Shown here: positions 16,949 through 44,885 of the stretch, in pieces
How positions within the stretch are numbered: the first letter of the stretch is position 1
Layout of the letters: each line of letters begins with the position of its first letter
Source of the DNA: Eledone cirrhosa
Lineage: Eukaryota
Assembly (NCBI GenBank): GCA_964016885.1
Contig: OZ024740.1
Coordinates: 394,630,001-394,694,000, forward strand
Direction of reading: 5' to 3'
DNA length: 64,000 bases
Position numbers and translations under genes: made by a program
Notes under the pieces: model-generated
The model's input: only the letters and a program-made list of their open reading frames with translations
Database searches by the model: none
What the model was told of the DNA's origin: nothing

Positions 16949-17822
16949 TCTCAATGTAAGAACATCAGGTGTTTTACAGAGCACGAATATAAATTACACA
17001 ATTATCAAAGTTATGTTCAAATGATTTTATTGCTGACAATCGTTTTTTCCAAACTTTCGTTTGGAATCATCGGAGCATTATCAATGTTTGTGCATATAAT
17101 TAACCTCCTATTCAACTGAACAATCATATAGATACATATATATTGATGTTGTGAACAATAGTTTCGTATTTACAGGGTGGAATGGATGCGACATATATTA
17201 TACGAGAATTGTACAATAATTCAAATTAAAGTTAAAAGCACAGAGTGGAATACATGCGACAGATAATACAAGAGAATAGTCTAATAATTAAAGAGGCATT
17301 GAGAAAGAATGAGGACACTAGCAGTACACATGCAAGCGTGTAGAAAGTGAACATGTGTTAGTTATATATATGCTTGTATTTTATGTGATACCTTTGCCAT
17401 ACAGTATTTATATATGCCTAATACCTTTGCTTGTTTCCTTCTCATATATATGACTAACGTATGTGCACTCTCTACACACTTGCATATGTACTACTAGTGT
17501 CCTCATTCTTTCTCAATGCCTCTTTAATTATTAGACTATTCTCTTGTATTATCTGTCGCATGTATTCCACTCTGTGCTTTTAACTTTAATTTGAATTATT
17601 GTACAATTCTCGTATAATATATGTTGCATCCATTATACCCTGTAATTACGAAACTGTTGTTCACAACATCAATATATATGTATCTATATTCAGATGAATA
17701 GGAGGTTAATTATATGCACAAACATTGCTAATGCTCCGATGATTCCAAACGAGAGTTTGGAAGAAACGATTGTCAACAATAAATTGATTTGAATATAACT
17801 TTGATAATTCTGTAATTTATAT
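16949..17822 (-). mobile_element. PLE-type fold-back (inverted pLTR pair, ~380-bp arms) next to (TA)n
   Basis: 16988-17372 is the reverse complement of about 17443-17822. A hammerhead-like motif lies in each arm. Confidence 0.8.
17732..17778 (+). ncRNA. Hammerhead-like motif, CCGATGA core variant
   Basis: TGCT-CCGATGA-TTCCAAAC(GAGA)GTTTGGAA-GAAAC-GATT-GTC. The mirror copy near 17032-17078 (-) restores stem I TGCT/AGCA. Confidence 0.6.
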
Positions 17823-18139
17823 ATACAAGAGGGTAGTACAGCATATTCGAAGCTCTGGTTGCGGGCAAGCTAACGAATGGTGTCTTGAAGTGCAGCCAAG
17901 AAGACTCAATAGGGAATTTTACCTTATATATATATATATATATATATATATATATATATACAGATGTGAGAAAAACCACAAACCCTCCATCTCAATTCTA
18001 CTTTTGAAAAGCAGAAGAACTGCGAAACCGGTAACGGAACCAAAGAAATATATATTTAAAAAATATGACTCCAGTTGCATTTTCGATTTCATCATTTTTC
18101 CTTATACTTTCACGCGTGTAGGACACCTCATATATATAT

Positions 18140-18312
18140 ATATATTTGTTTATATAACGACCAGCGTTGTAAAGTCATTTGCAAAACCTCTCTGGGAAAA
18201 GGAACATGCTTCGAGTCTCGTGTTATGTAATGATTTATATGAAAATTACGGAGAGCTTGTATAATCACGGAAGAAAGGGTAGGAGCAATATACGGATGTA
18301 GCTTCATCTCTG
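18140..18312. repeat. ~175-bp dispersed direct repeat (second copy 20799-20971)
   Basis: TATTTGTTTATATAACGACCAGCG...GATGTAGCTTCATCTCTGT is present twice with few mismatches. Confidence 0.85.
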
Positions 18313-18432
18313 TTTATACAATATATGTACTTATATATGTACATGTATATAAATATTTATATATACATATATATATATTTATATATACATATATATATAT
18401 ATATATATATATATATATATATATATATATAT

Positions 18433-19480
18433 ATATAGATAATTTAATATATCAACTAACATAAGCGCACAGATGCACGCCTATGCCAGCAAATACACAG
18501 GTTATGTCATAGTACCTAGGTGGTTCAATGCAGGAGGATGCAGAACAATAATATAAAAGACGTAAAATAAGAAAATCCTTTAAAAAAAATTTTTTTTTAA
18601 ATTTTTACTTACTTAAATTTTCACTCCAACTAATTAGTTTCTGCAATGGGATAAAGACAGTTACGTAATCTAACTGTCGAGAATTCATTGCGTCATCAGG
18701 GAGTCTATTCTCAGCTAAGTCTCCAGGCAATGCGCGGACACTGGCGGCTCATATAAAAATAATAATAATTCGGTAGATGGAACAGCTAGCGAGGACTGAA
18801 TTCCATGCACTGAAATCCTCACTGCCTCTAGTCAAATGGCCGATTCTAAAGAATCAATCACGTGACACAGAGGCTAGTCAGAAGGAATGGGATGGTAAGA
18901 TGACAGACGCCTACTAACACCCCCCAAAAAAATTTTTTTAGAAGTGGTTTTGGCAGGTTTGCTCGACAAATCAGTGATTTGGAGATAAATATAGATAATT
19001 TAATATATCAACTAACATAAGCGCACAGATGCACGCCTATGCCAGCAAATACACAGGTTATGTCATAGTACCTAGGTGGTTCAATGCAGGAGGATGCAGA
19101 ACACTAATATAAAAGACGTAAAATAAGAAAATCCTTTAAAATAAGAAAATCCTTCTGACTAGCCTCTGTGTCACGTGATTGATTCTTTAGAATCGGCCAT
19201 TTGACTAGAGGCAGTGAGGATTTCAGAGCATGGAATTCAGTCCTCGCTAGCTGTTCCATCTACCGAATTATTATTATTTTTATATGAGCCGCCAATGTCC
19301 GCGCATTGCCTGGAGACTTAGCTGAGAATAGACTCCCTGATGACGCAATGAATTCTCGACAGTTAGATTACGTAACTGTCTTTATCCCATTGCAGAAACT
19401 AATTAGTTGGAGTGAAAATTTAAGTAAGTAAAAATTAAAAAAAAATTTTTTTTAAAGGATTTTCTTATTTTACGTCTTTA
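18433..19480 (-). mobile_element. PLE-type element: direct repeat (18433-18583 / 18990-19140) plus inverted pLTR arms (18553-18886 / 19151-19480), flanked by (TA)n
   Basis: Near-identical direct and inverted copies read directly. Canonical hammerhead in both arms. Confidence 0.85.
19332..19413 (+). ncRNA. Type I hammerhead ribozyme (mirror copy 18623-18704, minus strand)
   Basis: Stem I ACTCC/GGAGT; CTGATGA; stem II GCAATG/CATTGC with nested GACAGTTA/TAACTGTC; GAAAC; palindromic stem III AACTAATTAGTT; GUU triplet. Confidence 0.85.
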
Positions 19481-41807: not shown

Positions 41808-43224
41808 CTTCAGTGGAAAAGCAGAATGGAATATTTAGCATTAATTATGTAATCGAGGTGAAATTGCCTCACCTAGATCTCTAAGAACCACTCGTCCTAA
41901 TAACAGCTTATTTCTTGTTCTATAGAGGGTTTTATGGTTTGGCACTAAAACTAAATATTAGAAAGTATATACTCGATACTCTACTTTTATAGGTAACCTT
42001 CACTAAGCTTGAAAATAATTAGGTGTTTATGATTAGTGGAAAGCGTAACGTGAGACATTAATTTCTATTGAAGTATCATTAAGATATTGTATAGACAAAA
42101 AAGTCTTAATTACCAACCAATTCACCTCCTCTTAATCAGAGTTATGTATCCCCTGACGATTAGATTTATTGACCAAACTCATACACTAGTGTGTACGCAC
42201 GCACACGTACGCACAAGCACACACTCGCATATATACTGACATCAATATATATATACACAAGTGTTGCAAGTGATCTCTTTTAAGTAGTATATTCATCGGT
42301 TATTTTTAACGGCGAATACAAACATCACACAGACCTAAACAACAACAAGTATGAATATCTCTAGAATGTTCCCAGAAGGGCTAGCGGTAAGCCTTGCAGT
42401 TAGATCTAGTTTCGAGAATTCAAATTCTATGAGACATCAGATCATTATTCATTAAAACAGTCACCTGATATAGAGCCGTGTAAATTAGTATTCATAGTAT
42501 TCATACCTAGCAACACATGCCTGGGTTTACAAAATATAGCTAAAGCCAATCATTTATTAATTTGTTATGATTAGCATATCTCTGCATCACTGAAAATTAG
42601 GTTTGTCGAATCATTTCTGTCACATTATTGGAAAATAATGTCCATCTAATTCCTTCCCAAGCATTTCGTCAATCGCAGTTAGGACTCGAAAAGTAAAAAC
42701 TGATCATTTTACGTAAAAGAGGCTTTTCAAATGCTGTTGCTCAAATCAGTATGGATTGTAACCATATCTCCATTTAAACAGTCTATCATCTGAATAAAGG
42801 TGAAACACCAGCGTATGTTATTAACACTTCCACATCTTTGCCCATCTAGTATAAAAGTCTTTCATCTATTTGAAAACTTTACTCTGCTGCATCCTCATAG
42901 ATGTTTCATAATTACTTATGTCAATTTTTCCTCTACTCTTCTGGGATTCCGTTTTTATTTTATTTTTTGCTAATGAAGAATATTAACTGCATCGATTTCA
43001 CCATTTTGGGAAAGCTTACAAAAGTGAGGGGCGCAATTTCTTTTCTGAATGAGAAATTAATACCATATTAGCAACTGCAAAACTTATATTATTATTGATT
43101 TGTTTTGCACTTGGGCACTCAAGCATTGATATATATATATATATATATATATATATATATATATATATATATATATATATATATATATATATATATATAT
43201 ATACATATATATATATATATATAT

Positions 43225-43640
43225 AAACAAGAAGTGTAAGTCAACGGGTTAAAATTAGCTTCGTTTATTGATATTCACTGTTATGTATATTTCAGTAATA
43301 GCCATTATTCAACAGCTATGACCTCATCAGGCAGTAAGAACTTGAACAGCAAAAACAGGAAAACATAATGTTGTGATAGATTTTACCTTGTTAATCCATT
43401 GATATTTTCAGATCTAGAGTGTGGTGTTAGACCTCTAAGGAACTGAAAGCATATGATTTAGAATGAACGAATTTCAGCGTCCAAAGGAATATGAATAAAC
43501 GAAGCTTATTTTAGCCTGTTGACTTACATTTCTTGTTTTTACATTACTCCAGAGTAAACAGACCAGCCTGCGCACTTCGTTGAATGCTCCAACCTGCATA
43601 CTGAGGTGTCGGTAAACAACCAACACATGCTCAAAATTAT
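43225..43640. mobile_element. PLE-type fold-back (arms 43225-43276 / 43487-43540) with degenerate hammerhead at 43278-43334 (-)
   Basis: Inverted 50-bp arms. CTGATGA-GGTCATAGC..GCTATTACT-GAAA. (TA)n on both sides. Confidence 0.7.
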
Positions 43641-44597
43641 ATATATATATATATATATATATATATATATATATATATATATATATATATACAGTGGCGG
43701 ACTGGATCTAAAAATATTAGTTGCCAGAAGTGAAGGGGGCCCACCTACATATAGAATGCTATCATTTAATTTTTATAGCGAATAAATAACATTTTCGAAA
43801 AATACGTAAGTGGAAACAAAACAGTGCAATCAAATGTTTGCGGAAAAATATCTTACGTTCTCCGATAAAAGTTATTATGTGTCTTGCGAAATCCAGAGAC
43901 TTGCAATAATTACCAGAAGTTGACCCTAAATATTACTAATAGCTCTAGGAATGCCTTGAACGACACCACATATTTTTAGCTTTGATTTTGAAAGTAGGTT
44001 TATAATTATCAATTTTCACGGTACTTTTGTAGCTGTCTCGGTGTGGCCTAGTTGGAGGAATCATAGACTGTGGAAATCCAGATCAGAAGTTCGATCCTGG
44101 TCGGGTGCAGGATTCCCGGTAAAGCTTTTCCATTTTTTTTCTGTGTTGTAAAATCAAAATTTGACCAGGATTGAAACCAAGGTCAGGATCTCCACCGTCT
44201 CTAGTACCTACCGCTAGGCCACAGAGAGAACTACGAAAATCTTATGAAAATTCATACTTATAAACCTACTTTCAAAATTTTCAAAAGAAAGTGTTGCAGT
44301 CTCGTTCATGTCTTTCTTAATGTTATTGCTCCCGCTTAAGGTCGACTTCTAAATCATTTGGGTGTTCCATAAACTATATCCTCGATTTGTTTCACATCTC
44401 TCTAGACTATATTTTAACCTTTAATCCATGTTACGTTTCTGTTGCACCTCATTTCTCCCCATCCTCTTTCTCTTTCTCTCTGCGATATTTGAATCTACTA
44501 TGATTTGGGCTTACCTTATTCATATATATATGTTTTTGCATGTCAGATCCAAACTTACAATGATTGGCATTATATATATATATATATATATATATAT

Positions 44598-44885
44598 AAT
44601 TGGTGTTGGATGCTGAAAGCGTCCGTATGAGGTAGGCCGTATGAACACCCAATGTCCTCGTAGAGCAGAGTATGATATCACAGAAAAAAGACGATCAGTG
44701 TTGCGACGAAAGGAATTTATTGGACATATTACAATTGGTTCTCGGGCGAACAGCTCGAGGCACGATCGATAAGGTGATCAAACCTGACTCTGAAATCACG
44801 CGGTCGTCGGATACGTCTCGATTCTACAAAGCAGATTTTCCTAATTCCTTTCGTCACAACACTGATTCTCTTTTTTCTGTGATAT
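44598..44885 (-). mobile_element. Short PLE-type fold-back (arms 44674-44716 / 44843-44885) between (TA)n tracts
   Basis: Inverted 43-bp arms. Minus strand CGTAT-CCGACGA...GAACCAATTGTA-ATATG. Confidence 0.7.

Follow-up and report, generated by a model that had tools for sequence, protein, structure and literature searches.

A bulged hairpin beside the insertion ends of Hydra-type Penelope-like elements: an apparently undescribed, usually doubled cis RNA motif in Eledone cirrhosa and other hosts

Penelope-like elements (PLEs) of the Hydra clade are defined by RWK, DKT, CxCX5C, CxxC and CxH protein motifs and by the lack of CCHH (PMC8557442). They resemble the elements described here in protein motifs, hammerhead, (TA)n targets, tandem and inverted insertions and a one-sided tail, which is 30-40 nt long in the published elements and about 50-190 nt here. 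The main text of that paper puts the tail down to endonuclease resolution and does not contain the word 'hairpin'. In vitro data come from PAc, a Poseidon element of Anolis (Frangieh et al. 2024, PMC11167929), for which both strands are cut and extended, two internal starts of reverse transcriptase (RT) bound the tail, and RNA located 3' of the start (to +172) is needed. Since this was published for the Poseidon clade (PMC11167929), internal initiation at an RNA stem-loop is not new. In the printed PAc template a stem with a 3'-side bulge can be drawn by eye at +121 to +147, shortly after the zone (+111 to +118) in which starts occur, but its sequence differs from that of the motif reported here and its bulge has 3 nt. 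PAc is also a single element of another clade, and the sections of the article consulted mention an 'AC-rich stem loop' and no cross-family motif or covariation (PMC11167929). The present work started from a 64-kb window of the 3.0-Gb Eledone cirrhosa genome (GCA_964016885.1, contig OZ024740.1, 394,630,001-394,694,000), in which PLE-type fold-backs carry a small hairpin with a 2-nt bulge. We conclude that this hairpin is a real cis RNA motif of Hydra-type PLEs that appears not to have been described. Earlier publications cover fold-backs, tails and internal initiation; the motif and its doubling appear to be new.

A sequence-only reading of the window had listed eight such hairpins in eight families held to be unrelated. 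All eight sequences were confirmed in place and strand, and a blastn self-comparison of the window gave no match between the families. The hairpins had been placed 1-16 nt past the end of the inverted arm; they adjoin it in all eight cases, with a measured range of 0-16 nt, the arm of the family at 22344 being only about 30 nt long and recognised by eye. They lie at the start of a one-sided extension, called the tail in the PLE literature; the window copy at 16950 is without the rest of the tail, which continues in other copies of its family. The consensus is G/A-C-U-C, a stem-loop, a U-N bulge, G-A-G-C/U and then A-C-U, with mismatches in the hairpins at 22344 and 44646. Folding energies are weak (-2.9 to -6.0 kcal/mol, one of -18.8), and the 2-nt bulge on the 3' side, although present in the minimum free energy (MFE) structure of five hairpins, is absent from that of the other three. 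Among the best 150 of 193 Rfam matches none reached the gathering score, and most were microsatellite artefacts.

The association with insertion ends was evaluated on held-out host DNA (about 2 Mb of the genome was read in total). We first searched 600 kb with a fold-back detector that took no account of the hairpin, then fixed a sequence-and-structure descriptor (D1), and applied both to 800 kb fetched later. D1 was found at offset 0-20 in 31 of 85 held-out tailed fold-backs, representing 11 of 36 sequence clusters, while shuffled tails gave a mean of 0.71 per 85 and a maximum of 3 in 100 shuffles. The match is also confined in position: 1/85 at offset 21-41, 2/85 at 42-62, and 4 and 3/85 inside the arm. 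The antisense strand gave 8/85, and random windows matched in 71 of 3643 cases. When three upper pairs were demanded, bulges of 0, 1, 2, 3 and 4 nt were found in 5, 1, 28, 2 and 0 of the 85. A descriptor of structure only was not discriminating, with 33/85 compared to 16-28 for 3' bulges of other sizes; the signal therefore consists of sequence plus structure. The 54 fold-backs without D1 are decayed copies, false fold-backs and other PLE types. In the inverse test, 28 of 39 testable model matches, which are copies of families, adjoined a (TA)n junction in another copy, compared with 5/36, 9/39 and 8/50 in controls.

The families of the window are designated E1 to E11. Carriers absent from the earlier list are E9, E10, E11 and a second E4-family insertion. 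Coordinates are those of the window, and sites A and B are the two insertion end points described below the list.

16950-16982, minus: E1 hairpin 1; rest of the tail lost in the window copy
16987-17822, no strand: E1 fold-back; hammerhead-like cores at 17043-17073 (minus, decayed) and 17736-17766 (plus)
18438-18551, minus: E2 tail, from site A (about 18551) to site B (18438)
18523-18546, minus: E2 hairpin 1
18619-18699, minus: E2 hammerhead motif; second copy at 19337-19417 (plus)
18961-18985, minus: E2 hairpin 2, just past site B in an internal tandem copy; outer pair mismatched
19079-19102: hairpin 1 of the E2 internal tandem copy
22344-22365, plus: E3 hairpin 1; decayed hammerhead at 22278-22305
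24024-24071, minus: E9 hammerhead motif, within the inverted copy
24237-24278, minus: E9 hairpin 2, just past site B
24433-24457, plus: E9 hairpin 1
24546-24569, minus: hairpin 1 of the second E4-family insertion
24918-24941, plus: E4 hairpin 1
25251-27746, minus: E5, a 5'-truncated Hydra-type PLE; inverted pseudo-long terminal repeat (pLTR) at 27438-27746, RT remnant at 27108-27497, GIY-YIG remnant at 26189-26770, hammerhead at 25573-25677, site A at about 25434, site B at 25251
25359-25428, minus: E5 hairpin 1, long loop
27886-27963, minus: E10 hairpin 1, decayed, long loop; 3' strand intact in another copy
34339-34377, minus: E6 hairpin 1; arms at 34377-34589 and 34929-35141
38071-38091, minus: E7 hairpin 1; hammerhead at 38134-38156 (minus)
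43546-43585, plus: E11 hairpin 1, decayed
44646-44672, minus: E8 hairpin 1; arms at 44675-44717 and 44843-44885

For each of eight families, 15-30 loci were recovered from the genome. In the four families that were aligned, the matches listed share two recurring end points against the microsatellite, and further families showed the same two junction classes. The inverted arm uses site A, which in most cases precedes the hairpin by 2-6 nt, with more scatter in the older E3 family; site B lies 50-178 nt from the hairpin start (E2, E3 and E5). In E4, 29 of the 70 copies break off 8 nt short of the hairpin, and all but two of the 65 tail matches (63) finish in the microsatellite. The fixed end adjoins (TA)n and the variable end is the 5' side of the copies. 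The order within the element is hammerhead, site A, hairpin 1, site B, hairpin 2 and ATG. Hairpin 2 was found directly past site B in five of seven continuing copies of E5, one of two of E4 and the single one of E10. In E2, which forms tandems, it was recognised by eye in 12 of 12 copies, whereas D1 scored none of them, the outer pair being mismatched. The site-B probe of E1 is of low complexity and uninformative. Since each of the two sites precedes one hairpin by a few bases, the tail is as long as the spacing between the hairpins, and the doubled hairpin accounts geometrically for the tail.

The two ends of an inverted insertion are also paired in a regular way. With probes from the window families only, E1 left out, 14 unbiased 100-kb blocks gave 20 inverted pairs, all of them AB, with no AA or BB; 9.5 AB pairs were expected (binomial P ~4e-7). 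A separate count gave 43 AB, 2 BB and 0 AA; it is partly circular, and the count of 20 is the cleaner one.

The motif was then searched in other hosts, in 77 metagenome loci fetched with an alignment of 37 homologs. D1 occurs upstream of the open reading frame (ORF) in 35 of 46 foreign loci, compared with 21 of 234 sense windows inside ORFs. Antisense matches are common, 16/46 upstream and 96/234 in ORFs, and the antisense strand is therefore a poor control for D1. With a tighter descriptor, the 39 foreign loci with enough upstream sequence contained at least two hairpins in 16 cases, one in 13 and none in 10, against one antisense hairpin in 7/39 and matches in 13 of 420 ORF windows. The paired hairpins are 55-104 nt apart, and the second lies 34-76 nt before the ORF start. 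The hairpin is thus usually present twice in Hydra-type PLEs. Thirteen foreign loci contain a point of divergence between the downstream pLTR and the internal copy with flank on either side, and in 11 of these the insertion end is located -4 to +4 nt from a hairpin start, where 2.1 were expected, some at hairpin 1 and some at hairpin 2. Inspection by eye of the published Hydra consensus sequences (PMC8557442) showed the hairpin clearly in three of six (in one of them twice before the ATG), in degenerate form in two, and not in the remaining one. A motif search of the supplement of Craig 2021 returned mostly internal matches in Naiad and Chlamys; one good Naiad match, about 440 nt from the end, was taken as chance. 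Scans of viral contigs gave no relatives.

Covariation in the stem was analyzed in two ways. With anchors defined by sequence only, the first three upper-stem positions are Watson-Crick in 69, 57 and 45 of 93 cases, compared with 37.4, 26.0 and 23.7 after shuffling. MAFFT misaligned the 5' strand when all 49 foreign hairpins were used, so covariation was counted on 23 of them, chosen by a length of 35-39 nt and a Watson-Crick outer pair. Because of this selection only the upper-stem pairs are an unbiased test. In this alignment 34 cells are changed on both sides, against 11.9 in shuffles that ignore relatedness (0/500 reached the observed value; most of the proteins share 34-60% identity with the first aligned sequence). 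Of its cells 98% pair, compared with 22-55% in slid controls, and RNAalifold predicts the same fold for the aligned foreign hairpins. C-U-C/G-A-G, the first bulge U and the following A-C-U are near-invariant, which suggests base-specific contacts with a protein. A model built from foreign sequences only ranked E4 (twice), E3, E7 and E9 top in the window; this short-loop model scored E2 weakly and missed E1, E5, E6 and E8. The proposal of a cis-acting signal in the sequence-only reading is therefore upheld as regards conservation, covariation and fixed position relative to pLTR ends, but the signal seems to belong to the Hydra clade rather than to PLEs generally, and its doubling had been missed. 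The sequence-only reading knew of no description of the motif in PLE tails. In the literature covered, which does not extend to subscription journals or Repbase notes, we likewise found no account of it, nor any of paired hairpins.

The coding carrier E5 had been called a GIY-YIG PLE, and this is supported by its near-full-length relative L321, in which RT followed by a C-terminal GIY-YIG domain can be read in a 727-aa frame, the N-terminal part of the protein being in another frame. L321 contains a pLTR with hammerhead, site A, hairpin 1, site B, a second similar small hairpin and the ORF. The unit is about 3.3 kb with a long linker insert, while Hydra-clade elements are generally <3 kb. Pfam gave no useful match for the E5 remnants or L321 and a weak GIY-YIG match for a homolog. 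The predicted protein of the family has the RWK motif (IRWKA) and DKT in place of DKG (SDKTK), both also present in most foreign loci, CxCX5C (CNCRYPNAC) in the linker, CxxC (CDLC), and CxH late in the endonuclease (CQH, in L322); no CCHH and no CxxC inside the GIY-YIG core were seen. With its hammerhead in the pLTR, recognised by motif and stem II only, and its (TA)n targets, the E5 family carries, as judged from these motifs, the marks of the Hydra clade. Our first guess, the Nematis clade, was dropped against the published clade definition. L322 holds two long E5-family copies in opposite orientation, one of them internally rearranged with the linker repeated.

Most other carriers are non-coding. 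No ORF was seen in E1-E4 or E6-E8, which have the inverted pLTR with a one-sided tail in (TA)n, and of the 23 motif-positive host clusters three have Hydra ORF remnants, most being short and non-coding. The non-coding families retain hairpin 1. Using a wider core pattern, hammerhead motifs were detected in seven of the 11 window families (E1, E2, E3, E5, E7, E9 and E10) and not in the copies of E4, E6, E8 and E11 examined. Variants with a CCGAUGA core lie at 25573-25677 and 17043-17073, and very long inserts, of about 70-95 nt, are present in stem II of the E5, E2 and E10 hammerheads. The non-coding carriers, and E2 tandems in particular, are like non-LTR retrozymes, short non-coding units that contain a hammerhead and are believed to depend on PLE proteins for their movement, for which no recognition motif is described in the portions consulted of the two sources (PMC7229834; bioRxiv 2026.07.22.740005). 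The hairpin is a candidate for the recognition motif of such retrozyme-like units.

Three motif-negative host families hold other PLE-like ORFs (two of the three were checked), which suggests, on the evidence of these ORFs, that the motif is specific to the Hydra clade rather than to PLEs at large. The motif-free fold-backs L096:4205-4756 and L216:291-1850 contain non-Hydra PLE-like ORFs (a GIY-YIG domain with internal CxxC, and an RT). Some motif-free families show other candidate hairpins past the junction, which are possibly clade-specific counterparts; one such family combines a GTTTC/GAAAC stem with a hammerhead, the latter in 8 of 11 copies. A Hydra-type ORF family at G000:C3:200003000-200010100 (L171-L172) has a hairpin with a bulge of 1 nt instead of 2 nt, and a tandem array at G000:C3:200078000-200082000 (L178-L179) consists of a 468-bp unit from a motif-negative fold-back family.

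We consider it probable that each hairpin, on the sense RNA, docks the protein of the element and sets a start a few bases 5', with one start per cut target end. The GIY-YIG domain would cut both strands of the (TA)n target; each target 3' end would pair with a short A/U-rich patch just 5' of a hairpin and be extended by the RT-endonuclease protein held there. One target end would start at A and the other at B, and the two cDNAs would be joined head to head, the tail being the stretch between the two hairpins. The hairpin that served as start would never be contained in the resulting copy. Both signals would therefore be retained solely in tandem (pLTR) or circular transcripts. Non-coding families would rely on this motif, too, for their mobilisation in trans. 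The geometry is seen directly in the insertions, and from it, aided by the in vitro results on Poseidon (PMC11167929), we infer binding, initiation and coordination. More tentatively, with odds somewhat below even, two hairpins per transcript could launch two coordinated target-primed reactions from which the tail, the pLTR requirement and the fold-back all follow, and Poseidon and other clades could share this layout with hairpin sequences of their own.

Several observations weigh against this mechanism. Ten host families have a copy that continues beyond the tail end, and a second hairpin was scored in six of them, once falsely. The end-pairing count also contained 37 unpaired ends (10 A and 27 B). 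In the foreign loci, the end of L337 lies past hairpin 2 and L361 was missed by the descriptor. The described bulge is in the MFE structure of just 25 of the 49 foreign hairpins, where the sense energy is lower in 16 and higher in 29, the antisense strand folding equally or more stably in most. G-U against A-C is 6:0 in these 49 hairpins but 4:3 in 25 host families, so that the evidence for which strand folds is weak. TATA or ATAT is present within 12 nt upstream in just 35 of 61 cases, counted in A/T-rich sequence with no background control. The microhomology proposed here also departs from the published in vitro starts, which share no homology with the target (PMC11167929). Finally, genomic ends cannot separate a start site from a cut site.

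This last point is the strength of the main rival, according to which the hairpin is a cut signal: an endonuclease would resolve a longer cDNA or donor DNA, or a nuclease would cut the RNA, just 5' of the stem, leaving identical genomic ends. It fits the attribution of the tail to endonuclease-mediated resolution in Craig 2021 (PMC8557442), the earlier finding that Penelope endonuclease needs the tail in plasmid DNA (cited in PMC11167929) and the weak strand evidence (6:0 foreign, 4:3 host). Independent cuts, however, predict AA, AB and BB insertions, not 20 AB of 20, and the size of the main Poseidon product is unchanged when the RNA is extended 3', which points to an internal start (PMC11167929). 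We therefore regard the cut signal as unlikely. It is improbable that the hairpins are regulators of the 5' untranslated region (UTR), acting in translation control or as promoter parts, with insertion ends nearby only because A/T-rich patches match (TA)n. The position of hairpin 2 before the ORF in foreign loci and the A/T-rich sequence 5' of the hairpins are as this would predict, but the ends are base-precise within families and lie by the hairpins in 11 of 13 foreign loci against 2.1 expected, and hairpin 1 is kept in families that code for nothing. The variable spacer together with the covariation also speaks against a site on double-stranded DNA.

An antisense RNA template, on which the hairpin would be a template-boundary element halting the cDNA as in telomerase RNA, seems quite improbable. 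Such a self-priming template was proposed for PLE palindromes (PMC3846280) and the stem can form on either strand; yet the copies vary at their 5' side and have their fixed end at (TA)n, as would result from priming at the 3' end, G-U in the foreign hairpins tends towards the sense strand, and the template active in vitro was sense (PMC11167929). The absence of ORFs from E1-E4 and E6-E8, and of detected hammerheads from E4, E6, E8 and E11, could indicate that the non-coding carriers are DNA elements with terminal hairpins, similar to Helentrons or miniature inverted-repeat transposable elements, and not derivatives of PLEs. This is most improbable, as motif, junction type and variable 5' truncation are those of the coding E5 family and seven families have hammerheads. 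That the pattern arose by chance in A/T-rich repeats has practically no likelihood: the structure-only descriptor is not enriched and the energies are weak, but chance is refuted by the held-out and cross-host tests, namely enrichment, end positions, covariation, the foreign-only model and doubling.

Small bulged stems that recruit RT are found at the 3' ends of long and short interspersed elements (LINEs and SINEs), in the 3' UTR of R2, in telomerase RNA and in hepadnaviral epsilon. LINE signals lie inside the copied part, in epsilon a larger bulge is itself the priming template, and the telomerase boundary element is 5' of the template. The hairpin described here differs from the LINE, epsilon and telomerase signals in being 3' of the first copied base, excluded from the copy, and doubled. 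The analogy with epsilon made in the sequence-only reading thus holds for a bulged stem and is otherwise loose, since the bulge has 2 nt, is on the 3' strand and is outside the copied sequence; as the insertions stop 5' of the stem, copying does not begin at the bulge. In L1 twin priming two target ends prime one transcript and an inversion results, the second start being opportunistic; the present elements differ in having two fixed starts and arms that overlap in sequence.

The window contains other repeats. Three tandem, partly broken non-LTR retrotransposon copies at 554-14358, presumably L1/Tx1-like, encode ORF1, AP endonuclease and RT according to the ORF translations. A degenerate short-period C/T-rich tandem array of about 5.5 kb occupies 52377-57872. 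A duplicated element of 600-800 bp with internal inverted similarity is found at 43692-46197, and E8 is inserted into it. A dispersed repeat of about 190 bp, probably a SINE, has many copies (16561-16745, 31090-31277, 44952-45146 and 60580-63871).

The motif bears on how PLE proteins recognise RNA and on the origin of pLTRs, inversions and the one-sided tail, and the ruler-like position of so short a motif makes the mechanism directly testable. The hairpin is a candidate signal for the trans-mobilisation of retrozyme-like elements and offers an annotation rule for the ends of Hydra-clade elements. It may also be a portable start tag for RNA-templated DNA writing, and it provides a point of comparison with the sister RTs, those of telomerase.

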